From Eledone cirrhosa (Eukaryota): 64,000 nt of DNA. Below, in pieces: positions 1 through 62,004 of the stretch. The notes beneath the pieces are model-generated. The model was given only the letters and a program-made list of their open reading frames with translations. It was not told where the DNA came from and made no database searches. The translations under genes were made by a program, and so were the position numbers. The first letter of the stretch is position 1. Each line of letters starts with the position of its first letter. The DNA is taken from NCBI GenBank assembly GCA_964016885.1, contig OZ024745.1, forward strand, positions 115,568,001-115,632,000. Reading direction: 5' to 3'.

Positions 1-270
1 TTATTATTATGTTAGACTATTTGTATGTAATATTTAATTTTTATTAATTCAACTATAACAATTATTATGTAAAATATATTTATTGATTGTTTTTTGTAGT
101 TGTTTATATTAAAAGTCTGAAAATATTTTTATACATCTTACAATAATATCTATAAGATCATTTATAAAATAACAATTATATAATCTAATTACATTACAAC
201 GATAATTTATTATTAATAGATATCATGTTTAACTAGAGTTATTACAAGCGTTGCCTTAAAAAAATTAAAC

Positions 271-719
271 TAGACCTGAAAAATGCGCAAGCTCAAAAGA
301 GCCACAGAATGTTATAACAAACCTTCAAAAGTGTGGGACTAGAGTTGTTGCTCAAAAATATTGTAATCATTATCTATCGTACACTCTGTGGCATCCTTTT
401 ATAAAAAAAAAAAGAGAGACTCATAACGAACTCAAGACGACACGATAATTATTTAAGTGAATTTATAATATAGAATTCGGTTTAAGTGCATTTCGTATTA
501 ATCATTACTAAACATCTAATATGAGATATTGAACATTAGCTTAAATAATTATCTTGTCGTCTTGAGTTCGTTATGAGTCTCTTTTTTATAAAAGGACGCC
601 ACAGAGTGTACGATAGATAATGATTACAATATTTTTTAGCAACAACTCTAGTCCCACACTTTTGAAGGTTTATTATAACATTTTGTCGCTCTTTTGAGCT
701 TGCGCATTTTTCAGGTCTA
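271..719. repeat. Long inverted repeat (arms ~271-457 / 540-719)
   Basis: The arms are near-exact reverse complements (tagacctgaaaaatgcgcaagctc... / ...gagcttgcgcatttttcaggtcta) with an ~82-bp spacer. Confidence 0.95.
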
Positions 720-861
720 TATTTAGGTTTGTTGGTTCACCACCGGATATAATTGGTCATTCCGTATGGTCAATCTTGATGCAATATTATGGAAAGTACT
801 CAACCTAGTGCAGTTCACTCGTCTTCGTTTGTGTAGTTGGTGGTGCGAATACGGAGTTAAT

Positions 862-1109
862 TATTATGAATAAAATAACAGGAGGCTGGACTGGTGTCAA
901 TCCTTGAAAAGTTTATTATACTATGATAATTTCGACCTCTCTGTCACTGATTTTCGGACCCATGGATTTTTATATATTCCTTTGTTATATTTCGAATACC
1001 TGATGATATCACCGGATTCATACGGAACCCGGTCATTGAAATGATCATAGTATAATAAACTTTTCAAGGATTTACACCAGTCCAGCCTCCTGTTATTTTA
1101 TTCATAATA
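862..1109. repeat. Inverted repeat (arms 862-933 / 1038-1109), probable Penelope-like pLTR end with inverted copy
   Basis: 72-bp arms are reverse complements. A hammerhead motif spans the spacer and right arm. Confidence 0.9.
996..1053 (+). ncRNA. Minimal type I hammerhead ribozyme
   Basis: Helix I atac/gtat; CTGATGA 1000-1006; stem II atcaccgg/ccggtcat; GAAA 1038-1041; palindromic stem III ATGATCAT; predicted cleavage after A1049; AATAAA follows. Confidence 0.8.
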
Positions 1110-1120
1110 TATATTTATAT

Positions 1121-1447
1121 ATATATCAAAGGTATATATTGAGTTAGGAACTCAAAATAGTCTCTTACAATAAAATAGCTCTAAGAAAGAGATTTTTCCG
1201 AGCCGTATATTATAATTGATTATAAAAGAAAAACGAACAGATATATACATATATGTGTTCAAATCGCAAGGGACCAGATATAAAAGAACTGGTGCCTTGC
1301 GATTTGAACACATATATGTATATATCTGTGTTCGTTTTTCTTTTATATTCAATTATAATATACGGCTCGGAAAAATCTCTTTCTTAGAGCTATTTTATTG
1401 TAAGAGACTATTTTGAGTTCCTAACGCAATATATACCTTTGATATAT
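1121..1447. repeat. Near-perfect palindrome (arms 1121-1277 / 1289-1447, 11-nt loop)
   Basis: Direct reverse-complement comparison. It also explains the mirrored 66-aa ORFs on both strands. Confidence 0.97.
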
Positions 1448-1594
1448 TCGGCTCCGTTAATTTGTTGAGCTATTTCAAATGTCGAATAAACTTGGCTGTT
1501 ATTTTTAGTGGTGTAAGTTTGTGAGACACGCTATTATATATCGCACACTATTCAGTTACTTAATATACTTAGAAGTGTCTAGGATACTAATTTG

Positions 1595-1674
1595 TCACCC
1601 ACTGATGAGCAAGAATTGGTATTTCTATTCACAATTAATTAGTATTGCGAAACAGCACCAAGCTCTCTGGGTGA
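1595..1674 (+). ncRNA. Type I hammerhead ribozyme (one stem III mismatch)
   Basis: Helix I TCACCCA/TGGGTGA (7 bp); CTGATGA 1602-1608; stem II GCAA/TTGC; GAAA 1649-1652; stem III ACAGC-accaa-GCTCT, C17. GCTGTC would be canonical. Confidence 0.8.
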
Positions 1675-1987
1675 TTGGTAGTTACCACAATTCCGGTTTG
1701 TATTTATTTTCTTGGATTTTTTTCTTAAATTGAGACAGGCAAACCCTATTGTCTATAGTTAGTATTCTTTTCACCATAGCGAATCTGGTCCCTTGCGATT
1801 TGAACACATATATGTATTTATCTGTGTTCGTTTTTCTTTTATATTCAATTATATATATATATATATATATATTAATAAGAGGAATTCCAACTTTGTCTGA
1901 TTTACTCGTTTTATTTACAATCCTTTAAAATCTATAATGGTATTATAATGAAATAGTATGATAGAATATTAAATGTTAAGTATTAAT

Positions 1988-2026
1988 TGAACAAATACTT
2001 TCATGCTTTCGCAATCTTCAGGTTCA
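1988..2026 (-). ncRNA. Inverted copy of the 2837-2875 hammerhead
   Basis: The minus strand reads TGAAC CTGAAGA TTGCGAAAGCAT GAAA GTATTT GTTCA, with one stem III C>T difference. Confidence 0.7.
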
Positions 2027-2836
2027 TAATGTGTGGTGACAGTCAAGTTTGCAATTTTCAACTGTAATGAGATGGGTAAATTTTGTACCTTATATACAGT
2101 GAAAAGTGGCTCCAGAATGCTAAATCTTGCAAACTGTATTTCGACCAATCGGTGTGTAGTTTCACTGAATTACTAAAGCTGATTGGTTTATGCGTCACGG
2201 TTGGTTGAGCATGTCTAACGACCACTAATTGATTCTATCCAAAGCATCAATTGTTTTGCTATTTTTAGAAATGATGAAAATAGCATTTTCTAGTAATCAT
2301 CACCATCAACATCACTTTTATTATTATCAGGGAATATTTATAATATTCCCATTCTACAAATTACACAGCCCAAGTGAAATCAAGAGAAAAATCAAAGAAA
2401 AGAATTTTATTGATAAATTCAAACCCAAGCTAAATGAACAATAATAATGCTTAGAGGTATTACTTCTACTATGACTATGACTACGACCATGTCGACTACG
2501 ACCACTAGCAACAACAACAACAACGACAACAATAATAATAATAATAAAAGTGATGTTGATGGTGATGATTACTAGAAAATGCTATTTTCATCATTTCTAA
2601 AAAATAGCAAAACAATTGATGCTTTGGATAGGATCAATTAGTGGTCGTTAGACATGCTCAACCAACCGTGACGCATAAACCAATCAGCTTTAGTAATTCA
2701 GTGAAACTACACACGGATTGGTCGAAATACAGTTTGCAAGATTTAGCATTCTGGAGCCACTTTTCACTGTATATAAGGTACAAAATTACCCATCTCATTA
2801 CAGTTGAAAATTGCAAACTTTTTTTTTTTTGCAAAA

Positions 2837-2875
2837 TGAACCTGAAGATTGCGAAAGCATGAAAGTACTTGTTCA
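2837..2875 (+). ncRNA. Minimal hammerhead ribozyme
   Basis: Helix I TGAAC/GTTCA; CTGAAGA; stem II TGC-GAAA-GCA; GAAA; palindromic stem III AGTACT; U17. Confidence 0.8.
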
Positions 2876-3830
2876 ATTAACACTTAACATTTGATATTCT
2901 ATCATACTATTTCATTATAATACCATTATAGATTTTAAAGGATTGTAAATAAAACGAGTAAATCAGACAAAGTTGGAATTCCTCTTATTAATATAATCTT
3001 TTATACACCATCATACACACCCGTGTATATTTATCTATATATATATATGCTTTACTACTTCTGTCTGTCTTTTCTATCTTCTGTCACTTGTGTCGATGAA
3101 TATATTGTGTAAATATGTTTTAAAACTTTCTCCCTTGCTATTGTGTGTCTGGTATTGAAATATTAATATGTAATATTATATGTATTTGAATTGCCTATAT
3201 CTCCGTATATTTATTGTCTATTATATATATATATTTTTTTTTTTTCACCATACTTTATTTTATTGTATGATATTATTATTTTTTACCCTGTAGAATACAT
3301 TATGTTTTTATACACGTTTTGTTGACTTTGTAAGGTACGTTGGATGTATTTATATATTTTTTTAATGTCAATATATTATTTTCAGTGATTTTAGTATTGT
3401 TTAATCACACCGTGAGGGTGATTATTCTATTATAATGCTTATATTTATATATTTGTGTTAATATGTGTAAATGTGTATATGTGTGTGTGTATATATATGT
3501 GTCGGAGTGCGTGTAGGTATATATATATATTAAATTTTATTTCTGTATTATGTATTGTATTGTATTGTATATTATATTACAATTTTTATATCTTATTTCT
3601 CGCATTATATTACTATGTTGTATTTCAAGTATTAGACTTATATTGTATTTTTAACGTGGGTTTGTTTAATGTTTGCTTGCTCTCTTGCCCTATAGCTTTT
3701 ATTTACAAATGCACCCTATTAGGTTTAACATGTCTTTCCATGATAATTTTCCTAAATTTTCCTAAATATCCATTCGCTATTCTTCTGAATTTTGGCTTGT
3801 TCTAGCCGATGATATTTCTTGTCTTTTTCC

Positions 3831-3875
3831 TTGCTCTGATGAGACCTAATTAATGGGACGAAACATTGTCAACAA
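3831..3875 (+). ncRNA. Minimal hammerhead ribozyme, slightly degenerate
   Basis: ttgct CTGATGA gacc-taattaatg-ggac GAAAC att GTC aacaa, overlapping AATAAA. Single mismatches in helix I and stem II. Confidence 0.65.
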
Positions 3876-4127
3876 ATAAAGATTTTTAATGTATTAAAGG
3901 CTTCTTTGTTAATTTTATATAATTTTTCGGCTGTTTGATAACATTGAGCTATATCTTATACTGTCATTTCTCTAATACGACGAGTGTGTTTAACTCTAAT
4001 GCACTCAAGTATTTTTATCATATATATATATGTATGTATACATACATATAGTAAAAGGAGAAGTGTATGGTTATCTACCCTGACAGTTCAATTAAATAGT
4101 TTCGACAAGAGCAGTATATATATATAT

Positions 4128-4663
4128 AGCAGTATTTTTCTCCCCATTTTATCACATATATTTACCTAAACTGCGATTCTGTTTTTTTCTCTCTCTCTCT
4201 CTTACTGCTCCCTCATTCTCTCTGTTTCTCCTACTTTCTTTCGCCCCCTCTGTCATGTCAGTTAACTCTTCCTCACACTTCCACTCACTCACTCACTGTT
4301 TCTCATCTCCTCACTTCACCCCCTTCGCAACGAAAGCAATTTCTCTCTTTCTCACATTGCATTCGTTCGCGAAAGGTCTTTTTTCTAAGCGCTCATATAT
4401 TCACCTAGCTTATGCTAACATAATAACTATGAAGCTTGTTTCCTTCCTTCTACGGTTAGCTCTACTCTTTGTTGTTTTCCTGTCTCACTCGCTTTACGCG
4501 TTTTAATTGTCCTAATAACTTAATTTAGTTATTATTGCACCGACGTGAGGTATATGATTTTTAATGCAATGAAATATTTATGATCGTCGGCAAATCACTG
4601 ATGAGGGACTTATTTTATTACATGTTATCCATGTGCTACCAGCAGTATTTTTCTCCCCATTTT

Positions 4664-4667
<4 letters not shown>
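4128..4667 (+). mobile_element. ~513-bp terminally redundant non-coding unit (PLE pLTR/retrozyme-like)
   Basis: 27-bp direct repeat agcagtatttttctccccattttatca at 4128 and 4641. CTGATGA-ggga...tcc half-hammerhead at 4598. Flanked by (TA)n. Confidence 0.5.
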
Positions 4668-4717
<50 letters not shown>

Positions 4718-4719
<2 letters not shown>

Positions 4720-5803
4720 CCTTTGATTCTGTGGACCGTTACTGCCTGATGAAGATCTTACAGGCTTATGGAATCCCCAAGAGGATAGTGGACCTGATAT
4801 CACTGCTCTACACCAACACCAAAGCCCAAGTCATTACACCTGATGGGATGACAGAGTTCTTTGAGATACTGGCTGGAGTGCTCCAGGGAGATACATTGGC
4901 TCCCTACCTTTTTATCATCGTAGTGGACTATTGTATGCGCCTTGCACTGGAGAAACACCAGGACTCTGGCTTTACTGTAGCACCGGCTCAGAGCAGGAGA
5001 GTTGGGGCGAAAAAGGTATCGGATGCTGAATTTGCCGACGACATAGTTTTGGTGACAAATACAGTGAAGGAGGCAGAGGATTTGATGCGGGAGGTTGAGA
5101 CTGTGTCGATGAGTGTGGGGCTGAGAATGAATGAGACTAAAACAAAATATCTGGTAGAGAATGTTGAGAAGCCAGAGGGGATCACTAATGTAGGCGGGAA
5201 GCCGCTGGAATTGGTTGAGGACTTCCTGTATTTGGGAGCAAAGATTGGGAATACGGAAGATGATGTGGTTGAGAGGAAGAGCAAGGCCTGGGCGGCGTGC
5301 CACAGCTTGAGATCGGTGTGGAAGTCGGACCTTCGTAGAGACCTGAAAATCCGCCTCTTCATTGCTGTAGTGGAGTCTGTGCTGCTGTGTGGGTCTGAGA
5401 CTTGGACACTGACCAAGAGACTCACTCAGATGGTGGATGGGTGCTACACGAGAATGCTGAGGATGGCTCTGAACATTAATCAGTATACACTGAGGATGAA
5501 AAACTCAGAGCTGTATGGGAGCCTCCCAAAAGTCAGCTCAAAAGTGACACAGAGGAGACTGAGGTTGGCTGGACATGCTCACCGACATCCAGAGTTGACA
5601 TTGCACTCCGTGCTCCTTTGGGAGCCCCTACATGGACACACTGGAAGAGGAAGACCAAGGTTAACATATGTTGATGCCCTAAGGACAGACACTGGTCTGT
5701 TGGAGACGCAGGACATGGCAGCGATAATGAGGGACAGAGACCGCTGGAGAGAACTCGTCCATGGATCTCGGGAATTTTACCCGCCTTAGATAGATAGATA
5801 GAT
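4718..5803 (+). mobile_element. 5'-truncated RTE-clade LINE, uninterrupted RT/C-terminal ORF
   Basis: AFDSVD, GVLQGDTLAPYLF, FADD, LCGSETW and RGRPR-like motifs. Stop at 5789 runs into a (TAGA)n tail. Inserted in (TA)n. Confidence 0.95.
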
Positions 5804-5808
5804 ATATA

Positions 5809-5922
5809 TATTAGAAATGTAAGCTATCGCCGTATTTTGACTAAAGAAATTAAAGACTATCAGGCTAAATAATTTCTTTAATTTCTTTAGTCAAAATACG
5901 GCGATAGCTTACATTTCTAATA
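5809..5922. repeat. Perfect hairpin (48-bp arms 5809-5856 / 5875-5922)
   Basis: tattagaaatgtaagctatcgccgtattttgactaaagaaattaaaga and its reverse complement, with an 18-nt loop. Confidence 0.95.
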
Positions 5923-6107
5923 ATTTCAAACCCACTCGCTGTTTCGAAAATATTCTTACATATATATATATGTTTATTCTTACATATATATATACTGCTC
6001 TTGTCGAAACTATTTAATTGAACTGTCAGGGTAGATAACCATACACTTCTCCTTTTACTTTTTACACAGTTATTTCCCTTTTAAGTATTCGCTGTTAATG
6101 ACAGCAA

Positions 6108-11700: not shown

Positions 11701-11882
11701 TGTTTCTACTTTTGGCACAAGGCCAGCAATTACCTAGTGTATTACTGGTACTTTATTTTATCGACCCCGTAAGGATGAAAGGCAAAGTTAACCTCGGCGG
11801 GATTTGAACTCAGAATGGAAAGGGCCGTAACTCTTTGCGTCAAAGCATGGCGTACGACCCTCTACCAATACTGCCAATCCAA
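11701..11882 (-). mobile_element. tRNA-derived SINE family 1 with TSD
   Basis: A box TGGCAGTATTGG, B box GAGTTCAAATCC, body ...tttcatccttacggggtcgataaaataaagtaccag. Flanking repeat ttctacaactaataat. Confidence 0.9.
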
Positions 11883-12572
11883 CGACTTCTACAACTAATA
11901 ATACCAATTAGACATATTATATTATTTCAAAAGGTATGTCTTATTTCCAAGTTGTAACACGCACTCATAACAATAAAGTTGAGACAATTATAGACACTCG
12001 TGTGAGATATTTCAGCATGTTTCATTTAATTACTTTATTCCTAAATTGATGACCAAATAACGTAAACACTAAATAAAATCGACGAACTTTCATGCTCGTT
12101 AAAAACACTTACTCACTTACCTGCAGACATGCAACTTCTGGTCATACTGTATCACACAACAGTGACCACACGACACAAGTGAGCACACACGCAACAAACG
12201 AATCAACACAACACAATCAACTAACCAACACGACCATCCAAAACATCGCTATAGGAGTGCCCCCCCCCCCCCCCCCCCCCCCGAGGAAGAATCTCCACAA
12301 ATTGGAGTGGTTGAAGCAGTGGGTGTCGCTGGCTGTTCTTTGTGGTAATACTTTCAGTTTCTTGGCCTCACTGCGCAGCTGAAATACAACACATTCACTG
12401 GGATGCAGATTTCTCTCGCTTCTTCTAACTTTCCCTATATTATTGCAAACATAATATAATCTACCTGAAACTTATTGAATACAGATTTATAAACCCAAAT
12501 GTACTGATGTTAAAGCCTAACTTCTCATAACAATTGTTGTCCGACGCTCTACCGATATCGCCAACTCATATT

Positions 12573-13030
12573 AATTGTTTCTACTTTTGGCACAAGGCCA
12601 GCAATTTGAAGGAAGAGGAAAATCGATTAAATCGACCCCAGTGCGTTATTTTATCGACCCCGCAAGAACGAAAGGCAAATCTAATCTCGGCGGGATTTGA
12701 ACTCAGTAAGTAAAGGGACAAAACATGTTGTCCGACGCTCTACCGATACTGACAATAATAGTGGTTTCTACTTTTGGCACACGGCCAGCAAAACCCAGTA
12801 TATTACTGGTACTTTATTTTATCGACCCCGTAAGGATGAAAGACAAAGTTAACTTCGGCCGGATTTAAACTCAGACCGTAAAGGGGATGGTTTCTGATTT
12901 AGGTACAAGGCCAATAATTTGTGGGGAGGGGAAAGTCGATTAAATCGATCCTAGTGTATTACTGGTACTTTATTTTATCGACACCGTAAGAATGAAAGGC
13001 AAAGTTAGCCTCGGCGGGATTTGAACTCGA
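12573..13030 (-). mobile_element. Cluster of three SINE family 1 copies
   Basis: Three tandem copies of ggcacaaggccagcaa...ttatcgacccc...gggatttgaactc. Confidence 0.85.
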
Positions 13031-15284: not shown

Positions 15285-15945
15285 ACTGTTTCTACGTTTG
15301 GCACAAGGCCAGCAAAACACCCAGTGCATTACTGGTACTTTATTTTATCGACCCCATAAGGATGAAAGTTAACCTCGGCGGGATTTGAACTCAGAATGGC
15401 AAGGGCCGTAACTCTATACGTCAAAGCATGGCGTCCGACCCTCTACCGATACTGCCAATCCATAAAAATAATAATTTAATTCTTTCTAACATTGGCACAA
15501 GGCCAGCAATTTGACGGAAGGGTAAAGTTGATTATATCGACCAATTGACCCTTGTGATGTGTGACTGATTGACATACTTGGTGGTGAATAGATCTTTTTG
15601 TGTTTTTCTCTCTCGCTTTGATTTTATAAATGATCAAAGCGAGAATTATAATCTGTAATGTTATTTATATAGATATAACTATCTATTCACAGTTGTATAA
15701 ATAACATTACAGATTATAATTCTCGCTTTGATCATTTATAAGATCAAAGCGAGAATTATAATCTGTAATGTTATTTATACAACTGTGAATAGATATAACT
15801 TTAAAAAAAATACTTAACTCCAACTTTATTTTATCGACCCCATAAGGGCGAAAGGCAAAGCAAACCTCTGCGAGATTTGAACTCAGAACGTAAAGGGTCA
15901 TAAACTATGTTGTCCGACGCTCTACCGATACTGCCAACCCACCGC
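15285..15945 (-). mobile_element. Two SINE family 1 copies, the second split by a foldback insertion
   Basis: Copy at 15285-15462. The second copy has its tail at 15481-15542 and its head at 15823-15945. Confidence 0.8.
15611..15795. repeat. Nested multi-foldback repeat
   Basis: The segment gatcaaagcgagaattataatctgtaatgttatttata occurs in alternating orientations (-,+,-,+), the first copy partial. Confidence 0.9.
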
Positions 15946-15969: not shown

Positions 15970-16315
15970 GACAGCTAAAAAATCTAAGATCAACCACATT
16001 TTGTTCATGTGTACTCTTAAGCTTTTTGGGACTAATTAGAGAGGCCACAAAAGTAGAATTAAGAAAACCTATGCTGAACAGAAAAAGTGAATGGAATAAC
16101 CATAACCATACACAAACACACACTAGTGACCAAAGGTAGAATATAAACACATAAACACACACAGACTCAGACACAAGCACATATACACACACAAATGCAT
16201 GCACAAACAGAAAAAAAAAATAAATAGATAAAATAAAAAACATATAGGAACACAACGTTAGAAAACATGATAATCACTGAGGATGTCACAGATATGTGTG
16301 TTGAAAGAACTTTGA
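15970..16315 (+). mobile_element. Decayed Penelope-like 3' end with hammerhead-like motif
   Basis: LIREATKVELRKPMLNRKSEW (GIY-YIG C-terminus-like), then tca CTGAGGA tgtcaca-gata-tgtgtgtt GAAA gaac tt tga at 16274-16315. Confidence 0.55.
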
Positions 16316-16863
16316 AAAACTATATTTATTTTTTAATTGTTGGTCAATGATAAACATTGATTGCCAGCTAAATTGTTTATAGAAATATAAAAATATACTG
16401 AAGCGAAAACCAAACCAAACAATGAATGGATGCCCTTCCTAACACCAACCTCATTTACAGTGAGTGCTGGATGCTTTTTTGCCGTGGCACCTCCACGACC
16501 ACTTTCTGGTAATATTAGGTCAACATGACATTACCCAAATATAAGAGAGCCAAAATAGAAGAAAAACAAACATACTGGAATGACAAAGATAGTATTGGCA
16601 ATTTACTAGAAATATGAAAAACAGCATGGATGAGCATCAGTCAGAGAAGTGGATGCAACAATCAGTTGTAAATGTTGAAACTGAGGTGCTAATCTCTGCA
16701 ACTCAAGAACACTTAGACAAATTATATGAAATGCTACATTGATAAGTAGTAAAAAAAAGCTAAAAGCATTTGCCTTGTATTAAGGATATGCAGTCAACTT
16801 GCACAAAGAGAAGATTAAAGGGGACAACATAGAATGCATTGATTATTAGAAAATATGTAGTGA

Positions 16864-28307: not shown

Positions 28308-28348
28308 CAGTTCTGATGAAGGGTAATGACCTAGAAATATGTTGATTG
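28308..28348 (+). ncRNA. Degenerate minimal hammerhead in PON intron 2
   Basis: cagtt CTGATGA aggg-taatga-ccta GAAA tatg tt gattg, lying within a ~390-bp unit bounded by direct repeats. Confidence 0.45.
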
Positions 28349-44522: not shown

Positions 44523-44727
44523 GTTTGTGCATGTTATGATTTTATTTTTATCTATTTGGGACAACCTTCTCCCCCGAGCACTTAAAAAAGATTCCATTTC
44601 TATCCACGTGGTGTACATGGCTTTTGACACAACAATTTGTGTTGTTATTTAGCCAAGGTTAGCCTGGATCAAATCGATGATTCAAATCATTCCATGTACA
44701 TTTATGACTATATTATTTAATGTACCC

Positions 44728-53179: not shown

Positions 53180-55140
53180 CTTGAGAGGGTCGTGGGGGTA
53201 GAGTCCTCAAATACTCCTTCCAGTAGATCATGTCAGAAGCAACCATCACCAAATGATATCAGCCAAGATCAAGGATGTTATCCAACCATCTTGCTCGGGG
53301 GCTACCTCTGGGTCACCAGCCAGTTGGTTTTGCTCATTAAATTCATGCAGCGATTCTTTCCTGAGACATTCTAACTACATGCCCATACTATCGGAGCTGT
53401 GATCTCTCAATTCGGAGAAGTAGCGGCTCTACCTGGAGTGACTCTCTGATTTCAGAACTGTGCTCATTATCAAGTAACGTTGCTCCAAAGACTTTTCAGA
53501 GGAACCCCATTTTGGCCGCTTGTATTCACAATCACATTCTTTTGGTCATTACCCAAGATTCATGACCATAGGTTGCATGAATAACGAATTGAAGAAAGCA
53601 TGTTTGACTTTCATGCCTACCCCTTTTGATTACTGAATGCCGAAGCTGGTTCATTACTGCACCAGCTCTTGCAATTTTTACACTTAATTTAGTCTCCTGC
53701 CTTCCATCACTCATGAACATGGCCCCAAGATACTTCAACTTCTCTACCTGCTTCAGTGGAACTCCTTTCACATGTAGAGTGCACTTCATAGGCTTTCTTG
53801 AGAGGACGAGTGTCTCAGTTTTCACAGCCCTGATTTTCATTCCAGCCATGCAGCACTCAGCATCAAACCTATCAAGTGCAAGTCGAAGATCATCTTCTGT
53901 CGAGTTAAGTGACACCATGTCGTCTGCAAATTCCAGCTGACTGATTTTACACCTGCCAGTCATGACACCACTTCCAACCTGGCTGTTCATCTAAATAATG
54001 AACAGGAGAGGTGACAGTATGCACCCTTTATGGAGTCTGACTCCCACATTGAATGTCTTCGATATAACACCATTTATCTGAACACAAATACTTGGGCATT
54101 CTTATAGAGACATCAGGGCAGCAAGAAGCTGACCATAAATCCCATACTCCTGCACAGCCTTCCACAGCAGTGCCCGAGGAACACGGTCATATGTCTATTC
54201 AAGGTTGACAAAACAAGAATATACCTCTTGGTAATAATCCTACGATTTCTTGAATACCTGCTGTGCTGCGTCCGGGGCGAAAACCACACTGTTCACTAGC
54301 TTGGATTCGACGATCTCTCTGCATCTCTTTGCCAGACACTTAACATAGACTTTACGAGGGAGGATTAACAAGGAGACCCCTCTGTAATTGGAATCTCTCT
54401 TGCCAGATGTGTTCTTGATAGCAGGTGTGGAGGAGGGCTTCTTATTACGAAGTCGGAGGATCGTTTGCCAGAACACTTTATTTGCTTAACTCCAAAGTCC
54501 TCCCATGTTTTAACATTGGACGCTTTTACTGTTTTTGCTGTGATTTTTTTGTGCCTGTTTATACTGCAAGTGAAAGAAGGAGGAAATATTTCCAAGCCAA
54601 GCTTTGTAAGCCTCCTTCTTTGCTTGGATCGCATCTTTGACCCCTTGATTGAACCACAGGGTCTTGTTGCCATCTGGTGCCACATAAAGCCTCTTTTGCC
54701 CACAGCATTTAACAGTTGAAGCAGAAACTGCTGCACTGAACAATCTCCACTCTGTCTGAACTTCTTCAGTTTGCTCAGGGAGTTCTCTGAATTTGGATGC
54801 AATAGTATCTGACTTTCTTATCCACCAATACTTCCCACTTTATGCTGTAGGTCACCTTGAACCTGACAGTTTTATTGGCTTCTTTGGCTTTAGGTAGTCA
54901 CAAGTTGCAGATAACCAGATGGTGATCAGTTGACAGCTCAGCGCCTCCCTTAACTCAAACATCTTGTATAAAATTAGAGAGATCAGAGACAATAAGAAAA
55001 TCAATTATTTATGGATGTCTCTGTGCTGGAAGGTGTTCATAATAGAGAGTCCATTGCTAGAACAAAAGTCTTGTAAGGCCTCTCCATTCATATTTAGATC
55101 AGAGTCACCATTCCTTCCAATCACACCTTTCCATGTCAGG
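53180..55140 (-). mobile_element. RTE LINE, decayed
   Basis: WKGVIGRNG...NGEAL, NYRGVSLL, FADD, YLG and YGHESW motifs. A second 3' end lies at 50336-50700. Confidence 0.9.
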
Positions 55141-60660: not shown

Positions 60661-62004
60661 GGACAGATTATATGATACATGTATTCAAACTACAATGCTG
60701 CATAGCAGTGAGCCATGAGCCTTGTATGCAGAAAATTCGCAACAGCTTAAAAGAAATGAGGTATGCATGTTATGTTATATGTATAAATGACAGAGAACAA
60801 GTGAACTGAGAGACGATTGAACGTATAAGACTTGAATGCTGTGTGCAAGAGAGATGATTGTACTGGTATTAGCATGTGATGTGTAAGGAGAATAAAAGTT
60901 ACACGAGGTTGTGAAAAATGATTTCAAGAAGGTGAACTCCACAAAGGAGATAACACAGGACCAAGCTGACTGGGGATATGCCACAATGCAAGACTTCTTC
61001 ACCAATAGAAGCATTGTGACACTAAAATAAAATGTGAGAAATGGGAGGCTACAGTATTTGGCATTCAAAATGAAGTAAAGACAATATAATGTTTGAGAGG
61101 ACTTCAGTCTGGCATGGCTTAAGAATACTTATCTAGTGCTGGTACCACAATAAAATGCACCCAGTCTACTCCATAAAGTGATAGTGCTGCTGTCAGAAAA
61201 GATGCATTTGAAAAATCAACCCAGAACACCATGTAAGGTAATTGGTTTTATGAAGGGCATCCAGCCACAGAAACCATGCAAAATATAGAACATAACAATC
61301 AAGATTGGTTGTTTCATTTTGTCTGGTCTCAGACTGTGATATCTTGTCAAACTCATGTCATTGTAGAAAGAGGACATCAAATGATGCTAATGGCGTGGCA
61401 TATATATAGTGACTAGATATAGCTGACAGTTATTTTTAGCCACTATATATAATAGCTTTGCAAAATTGGTTCATATGATTTGCATAATAGGGCTTTCATT
61501 GATTGGGAATGTAGTCAATTAAGTAATGATGCAATAAATAACACAGGCAGATGGAGTAAAGTGTAATGTATCTGATGAAGACTTGAGTCAAAACTGGTCA
61601 GCCTAATCTCTTTTTCTGTCTTTGGAAAGGTAGGAATTATATTTGTTTATATTTGTTTACTTATATTAGATGACACACCACAATACTGACAGAAATTTGT
61701 ATTTTTTATCATTAGATATAACTTTATTACAACTTCAAAAGAATGAAAGGTGTAAAAATATATGATAGATATATATTAAAGTGGGTTCTAACATACTTGA
61801 TGTAGAAATTTCATGTGACATTTATAGCAATAAGATCCCACCTCTATATTTCTTGATCTCTTCCCTTCCTCCCTCTCTCTCTCTTCTTTCTCTCTCTTTG
61901 ATATAAAGTTCTTTCATAATCAATATTATGCTGTTTCATCTAGTTTGTTGTATGGCTACATATTGTTAACACAGTTATCAATGATGAGATATAGATTAGA
62001 AAAT

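Follow-up and report, generated by a model that had tools for sequence, protein, structure and literature searches.

A palindromic Penelope-like insertion with opposed hammerhead-like motifs in Eledone cirrhosa

Within a stretch of 64,000 nucleotides from Eledone cirrhosa (hereafter the window), which consists of AT-rich, animal-type DNA with many microsatellites and LINE fragments, a long palindrome encloses the end of an open reading frame (ORF). This raises the question of which element left the palindrome behind and how its two arms came to face each other. It is very probably a single 5′-truncated insertion of a Penelope-like element (PLE), in which a sense copy (2328 to about 3035) and a shorter inverted one (2327-1868) meet head to head. 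The identity of the loop peptide, the truncation point, two 3′ ends of the family, the repeated sequence, the hammerhead anatomy and the (TA)n flanks are direct observations.

Anatomy of the palindrome and the peptide in its loop

The palindromic arms of about 460 bp claimed in the original prediction are real: BLAST (95.9% over 461 columns, E=0) and global alignment place them at 1868-2327 and 2538-2995, with few differences plus one patch, around a loop of 210 nt. The left arm (1868-2327, minus strand) is an inverted, more deeply 5′-truncated copy of the 3′ UTR and pLTR of the element; it carries no tail and ends in an (AAT)n tract at the junction. The right arm (2538-2995, plus strand) holds the remaining 3′ UTR and the pLTR (about 2836-2995). 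On the same plus strand, the loop comprises the end of an ORF (2328-2444) followed by the start of the 3′ UTR with a trinucleotide-repeat tract (2445-2537), present in single copy. The palindromic arm stops at 2995, as had been stated, but the insertion itself runs about 40 nt further right as an element-derived, one-sided tail (2996-3035, plus strand; about 34-40 nt, right end approximate), containing an AC-rich stem-loop at 3013-3028 with a folding z of -4.45 (1 of 200 shuffles). Overall the insertion unit measures about 1.2 kb, and both flanks are (TA)n (1850-1867 on the left, 3036-3048 on the right), from whose sequence the target is inferred. A target-site duplication is not readable at this locus, where the left (TA)n merges with the arm end.

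In the global alignment the arms differ by five substitutions (right-arm positions 2632, 2715, 2868, 2881 and 2893), two one-base indels (2599 and 2785) and the patch, which was found as expected but is smaller than the roughly 20 nt given for it, with 15 nt at 2821-2835 (a T-run plus GCAAA) facing 17 nt at 2028-2044. Since the left-arm form of the patch is present in the loose ends of all four sequencing runs in which other copies were compared (X1, X4, X6 and X13), the right-arm form (2821-2835, plus strand), in which a T-run and a repeat of the adjoining TTGCAAA stand in place of 17 family bases, is the derived one; it is likely a repair scar, perhaps templated by the neighbouring TTGCAAA. 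Outside the patch 5 of 442 sites differ (98.9% identity, JC 0.011). With an octopus-type clock, by which a JC of 0.09 corresponds to 25 My (PMC13282606), this divergence would amount to about 1.6 My, on the two assumptions that the clock holds and that the arms had no differences when they formed.

The frame at 2328-2441 encodes 38 amino acids ending in PKLNEQ, with the stop at 2442-2444. A Pfam search with this 38-aa peptide returned no matches, and phmmer against 1.84 billion proteins returned nine (E 1.5e-5 to 9.3e-4), to whose last residues the peptide aligns. Five of the nine carry the Pfam GIY-YIG domain, two of them above the curated cut-off, and one match of 698 aa (P0004) combines GIY-YIG with a reverse transcriptase (RT) match. 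Relatives of P0004 numbered 2942 at E<=1e-20 among 8000 scored candidates, the named ones being mostly bivalve, and a telomerase-like RT was present in the same ORF in all close relatives examined, P0004 included. The peptide matches 114 of the 118 relatives of at least 600 aa, lying at most 10 residues from the C-terminus in 111 of those 114, and its closest relative (P0017) is 68% identical. A profile of the relatives scores it 34.9 bits, where none of 200 shuffles exceeded 3.9, and among the 2853 frames of the window it is the only significant match (E 1.3e-9); as this profile descends from a match of the peptide, it confirms the position and is not an independent discovery. A word-index search for longer proteins with a 40-aa query gave four candidates, none of which scored.

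The claim that the spacer encodes the C-terminus of a PLE-type endonuclease is thus upheld by the phmmer matches and by the C-terminal alignment to RT plus GIY-YIG relatives, and the HMM search proposed for the peptide at 2328-2444, once run, aligned it to PLE GIY-YIG proteins. These 38 codons and the stop are the end of a PLE RT and GIY-YIG ORF and, fragment though they are, would place the element by its C-terminal GIY-YIG among the EN+ PLEs. Only the last 38 residues are retained at the locus, the GIY-YIG motif itself having been truncated away, and no PLE RT was matched among the 2853 frames of the 64-kb window; the link of the window element to an RT ORF is drawn from the relatives and from about 30 nt of loose ends of other copies. 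The copy cannot encode an RT and is likely a dead insertion.

Other copies, two 3′ ends and the affinities of the family

The tract 2328-2995 is partly present in 11 of the 15 sequencing runs listed (seven studies, eight organism labels), none of those with this tract being an RNA run. Copies were compared over 2290-3950 in four of the 15 (X1, X4, X6 and X13), whose organisms need not be the host species, and seven of the other runs hold a small share of 2328-2995 or none. In the loose ends before 2327 in X1 (six contigs) and X6 (one), the endonuclease frame continues, and read by eye these ends contain a PLSxHxxxCG motif, as P0004 does before the same stretch; similar letters precede 2333 in X4 (four), where the frame also continues. 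Because the endonuclease frame continues upstream in other copies, 2327/2328 is the point of 5′ truncation. The two copies share a single T there (1 nt of microhomology).

At the opposite end, 33 X1 contigs leave the element at 2995 into (TA)n, the position to which the outer end of the left arm corresponds, and others continue through 3001 and 3009. The depth at the family variants 3001/3009 was 387,000-434,000 in X1 against 894,000 at 2980, and 31,000-29,000 in X6 against 58,000 at 2980, with no drop between these positions in X13. The family has two 3′ ends, one at 2995 and one beyond, of which the left arm shows the short and the right arm the long form. Depth in X1 also rose about tenfold toward the 3′ end, from 0.04-0.08 million in the unmasked bins of 2346-2793 to 0.69-0.77 million across 2850-3017, as 5′ truncation would give, contig depth not being copy number. 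Among the 3239 X1 contigs, 1292 were less than 95% alike to the window copy.

Three raw reads of X13 run from the arm end at 2327 through 40 letters ending in upstream endonuclease sequence and then from 2327 onward. This junction, 31 nt further up the ORF, may represent either the orthologous site or a second event. The joints between opposite strands recorded at 2325/2327 were rejected as proof of other inversions: the loop tract was masked as a repeat when other copies were compared, and with 2457-2575 masked ordinary copies map to 2290-2327.

The layout matches the inverted-copy insertion mode that had been predicted. Canonical EN+ PLEs are described with a C-terminal GIY-YIG, a hammerhead in the 3′ repeat, 5′ truncation with an adjacent inverted truncated copy at the 5′ end, an optional 30-40-nt tail at one end and a bias to microsatellite targets (PMC8557442, PMC3846280, PMC2377424), all of which recur here, the tail with its approximate right end included. 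The window copy differs from them in having neither a direct upstream pLTR nor an RT, and in an inverted arm of 460 nt that extends past the roughly 200-nt pLTR into the 3′ UTR; unlike the Adineta copies described in these sources, its junction lacks a short palindrome.

As to the clade, a CX2-5CxxC linker, which lies outside the window fragment, occurs in 114 of the 118 long relatives, and their spacer from the linker to the next cysteine measures 23-30 residues (median 24, n=103 measurable). This resembles the Neptune rows in Fig. S2 of PMC8557442 (25-27 by count) and not the Nematis rows of the same figure (about 7). The window C-terminus (IFPFYK...FKPKLN) nevertheless differs from that of the Neptune rows (...LxxxxPxGLN), and a term search of the supplement of that paper did not find the string PFYK. 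The family looks Neptune-like and is left unplaced, the relatives having been compared with figure rows rather than in a tree that includes named elements. Naiad and Chlamys elements are distinguished by an N-terminal EN and no canonical hammerhead, whereas here the EN is C-terminal in 111 of 114 relatives and hammerheads are present. The Poseidon element PAc of Anolis (PMC11167929) is alike in its AT-rich target, in two 3′ ends that define the tail, in an AC-rich stem-loop in the tail region and in its minimal hammerhead; it belongs to another clade, Penelope/Poseidon having no Zn linker, and its ORF is described as starting inside the hammerhead, while no start codon follows the window motif. 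The window copy is a new family member of known architecture, and the family may already have a name in Repbase-type libraries.

Hammerhead-like motifs in the arms and in the neighbouring hairpins

Hammerhead cores had been predicted in both arms on opposite strands. They are there, although stem III of the left one reads AGTATT and not AGTACT. Both are minimal type I motifs, the right at 2837-2875 on the plus strand (26.6 bits, E 1.4e-5) and the left at 1988-2026 on the minus strand (23.0 bits, E 1.8e-4). The right motif consists of a 5-bp stem I, CUGAAGA, a 3-bp stem II closed by U.U, GAAA and the palindrome AGUACU, with U at the cleavage site; in the left motif this palindrome is weakened to AGUAUU (self-duplex -0.4 kcal/mol). 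Core positions C3-U4-G5-A6, G8-A9, G12-A13-A14, A15.1-U16.1 and H17 are found in both arms, with stem III predicted to form as a dimer only, and U.U replaces the G10.1-C11.1 closing pair of stem II in both. A descriptor scan of the window gave six rows at five sites, whereas 30 block shuffles averaged 0.13. Rfam at gathering thresholds gave no matches in the whole window. Folding z-scores of the 39-nt motifs were unremarkable, so folding energy was not counted as support.

The control set comprised 123 loci of relatives (590,571 bases) from alignment-based metagenome scans; a metagenome scan with P0004 alone had given 91 pattern matches, none of them confirmed. In these loci the descriptor found 32 hammerheads, 32 of 32 on the coding strand, against 0-2 in five shuffles, and 14 of the 32 have U at the cleavage site. 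Five of the 15 loci that share the C-terminus of the window peptide have a strict CUGANGA motif, which lies 174-448 nt past the stop, and a sixth has a variant core; several contigs in this set of 15 end within 160-460 nt of the stop. In one of the five, an RT plus EN copy (L003), the motif is built as in the window and lies 448 nt downstream of the stop. Given that the U.U closure of stem II is also found in three of these five (L003, L010 and L077), it is likely a variant of the lineage rather than decay. None of the 15 loci contains the same simple palindrome as the window copy, and at the DNA level positions 1-4200 of the window gave a single 40-nt match to the 123 loci. A covariance model built from 21 relative motifs, avoiding near-duplicates and including none from the window, places the two arm motifs at the top of its 23 window matches (E values rough), the right one ahead of the left; the pairs of the model were picked by the descriptor, so its covariation is not independent. 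The window element thus carries a type I hammerhead motif in its 3′ repeat (pLTR), on the coding strand.

Several observations were made beside these in the relatives. After the stop, L002 and L015 have very short hammerhead-like cores (stem II about 2 bp, ACCGGT palindrome), apparently repeated, which escaped the strict descriptor; the direct pLTR-ORF-pLTR partial tandem characteristic of active EN+ PLE copies was seen in more distant relatives such as L044, which has two same-strand motifs. The contigs with the PLE RT matches of L077-L123 are listed under prokaryotic genome assemblies and probably entered these bins as contamination from a host animal.

The arm motifs share with the minimal PLE hammerheads described in PMC4209133 and PMC6765202 the type I order, the CUGANGA/GAAA core, a 5-bp stem I and a short palindromic stem III needing a dimer, and differ in the 3-bp stem II and in U.U instead of the conserved G10.1-C11.1. 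Opposite-strand pairs of minimal hammerheads 100-700 bp apart have already been reported, and minimal PLE hammerheads are described as cleaving weakly and as dimers only (PMC4209133); those of PAc depend on protein, and insertion in vitro can proceed without them (PMC11167929). The dimeric cleavage suggested for the palindromic stem III is plausible by predicted energies for same-strand copies (-16.4 kcal/mol for the dimer of two right motifs against 2 x -4.2; -11.8 for the dimer of the left variant), with U17 letting the predicted dimer helix over-pair into the core. It does not extend to the two arms, which are not each other's dimer partner because they lie on opposite strands. Read-through RNA is predicted to fold as one hairpin (-754 kcal/mol), in which the motif pairs to the left arm with a mean probability of 0.97 and stem I has a probability of 0. 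The hammerheads are thus predicted to be passengers, needing a same-strand partner and locked in a 460-bp stem if read through.

Five of the 11 best covariance-model matches fall within the first 4 kb of the window, where three other hairpins precede the palindrome. The original prediction tied these neighbouring hairpins to PLEs as a group, a claim that holds to different degrees. The hairpin at 862-1109 (head to head, 70 of 72 matches) has in its loop a hammerhead-like motif at 995-1054 (E 0.018), whose stem III is an 8-nt palindrome and whose closure is U.U; it repeats the layout on a small scale and is likely the stub of a different PLE family. The near-perfect hairpin at 1121-1447 (154 of 157, 11-nt loop) is connected only through its inner 69-75 nt, which recur at 1785-1859. 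Upstream of this second occurrence, at 1597-1672, lies a weak hammerhead-like motif with long stems (E 1.2), and the palindrome sits in (TA)n directly after 1449-1859. The hairpin at 258-733 (arms of about 210 nt, 192 of 207; 54-nt loop) could not be connected: it has no hammerhead by descriptor or covariance model, no ORF and no other copy in the window.

On the other side of the palindrome, 3050-3935 belongs to a second repeat family, with its greatest depth at 3831-3875, where a hammerhead-like motif (E 0.08) is followed by AATAAA; the majority letters of other copies at 3844, 3871 and 3872 restore broken pairs in stems I and II of this motif. Beyond this family, several of the hairpins are parts of other kinds of dispersed repeat. 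At 4050-6059, a 79-nt inverted pair (78 of 79) encloses a LINE RT fragment with an open frame at 4719-5789, presumably RTE-like, together with a 37-nt direct repeat (4128/4641) and a perfect 48-bp hairpin (5809-5922). Overlapping short palindromes at 15611-15795 form a three-armed fold-back with one related place near 44,700, and the repeat near 11,750-13,030 is one that we take to be a SINE. Further model matches at 16272-16317, 13442-13386, 61567-61604 and 28308-28348 have rough E values of 2e-4 to 0.06; some of these four, lacking good stems, may be chance matches.

Origin of the head-to-head arrangement

For the single insertion preferred here, we lean slightly towards a route with two primers over one in which a cDNA copied itself. 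The RT-endonuclease (RNP) of the element would nick both strands in the (TA)n tract, and each nicked strand would prime reverse transcription at one of two neighbouring pLTR start sites, which would leave the tail on one side; both cDNAs would stop early, at 2538 and 2327, and be joined head to head through 1 nt of microhomology. PAc is reported to cleave and extend both strands with a preference for AT-rich targets, and to have two RT start sites at an AC-rich stem-loop that bound its tail (PMC11167929). A literature search combining Penelope with twin priming and inverted copies brought up no PLE paper by title among the matches listed, and one on palindromes and self-priming had PMC3846280 as the sole relevant paper among the best 15 of 80.

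Self-copying nevertheless retains an appreciable, if lesser, probability. In that case the first cDNA, or an antisense template, would have turned back on itself near 2538 and used its own 3′ part as template, after which the endonuclease trimmed one end and so left the one-sided tail. The geometry fits equally well (a cDNA from about 3035 to 2327, folding back at 2538), and palindromes of this kind have been explained in print by self-priming (PMC3846280). The junction is less favourable to it, with only 1 nt of microhomology, no hairpin there and a 210-nt loop. The alleles carried by the arms, judged among 40 of the 224 variant rows listed for the family, bear on both routes. Alleles 2633A, 2638T, 2643G and 2931G, in the minority in most of the four runs compared, are common to both arms, which indicates one source lineage and would suit self-copying. 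A self-copy would, however, start identical, yet the arms do not agree at 2715 (C/G), a position with both letters frequent in each of the four runs (C at 54,294 of 74,119 depth in X1 and in 313 of 786 reads in X13), nor in the A-run at 2599, whose two lengths are likewise frequent in the family. These two differences could also stem from homoplasy or gene conversion. A shared rare haplotype with differences at 2715 and 2599, together with arms that each start at one family 3′ end, leads to the tentative and rather doubtful suggestion that each arm had an RNA template of its own, with a dimeric RT-endonuclease priming on the two nicked strands, for which 2715, as one informative site, is a hint only.

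The same two polymorphic differences also speak for two independent insertions of the family head to head, or for a later inverted duplication; the hammerhead-bearing remnants nested in the first 4 kb and the reported insertion of PLEs next to earlier copies (PMC6765202) point the same way. Such an origin is nonetheless improbable, as the arms are far more alike outside the patch than many X1 contigs are to the window copy, the junction contains no host DNA, and a one-sided tail fits a single event. There is very little to recommend an artefact of assembly or of a fold-back read: two homopolymer indels, the T-run patch and the want of a record spanning the whole unit (only 2290-3950 was compared) could be read that way, but the left arm stops exactly at the family 3′ end, the flanks do not mirror each other, the arms are set apart by five substitutions, and the three X13 reads contain the same kind of junction. 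Equally remote is a fold-back DNA transposon (MITE) or a retrozyme with PLE sequence in it by chance. The long inverted ends and the TA target do recall MITEs, and animal retrozymes are reported to hold type I hammerheads and to derive from pLTRs (bioRxiv 10.64898/2026.07.22.740005). Against this, coverage rises toward the 3′ end as for truncated retrotranscripts and joints vary between copies; moreover, non-LTR retrozymes are described in the same preprint as same-strand tandem units with a hammerhead each and no ORF, while here the copies are inverted and contain ORF sequence.

A single PLE insertion remains the preferred account, and the palindrome is likely ordinary, a dead insertion of well-described layout. 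As a clean textbook case of inverted PLE insertion it has value for annotation, such palindromes being easily filed as MITEs or non-coding hairpins. If it is transcribed, the 460-bp stem would be a dsRNA substrate for silencing or editing. The formation of inverted repeats and tails in PLEs is described as still open (PMC8557442, PMC11167929); if many copies had arms from different templates, this would bear on how inverted pLTRs form, and in a genome rich in young PLE palindromes the comparison of arm with arm at polymorphic sites would be informative on that process.
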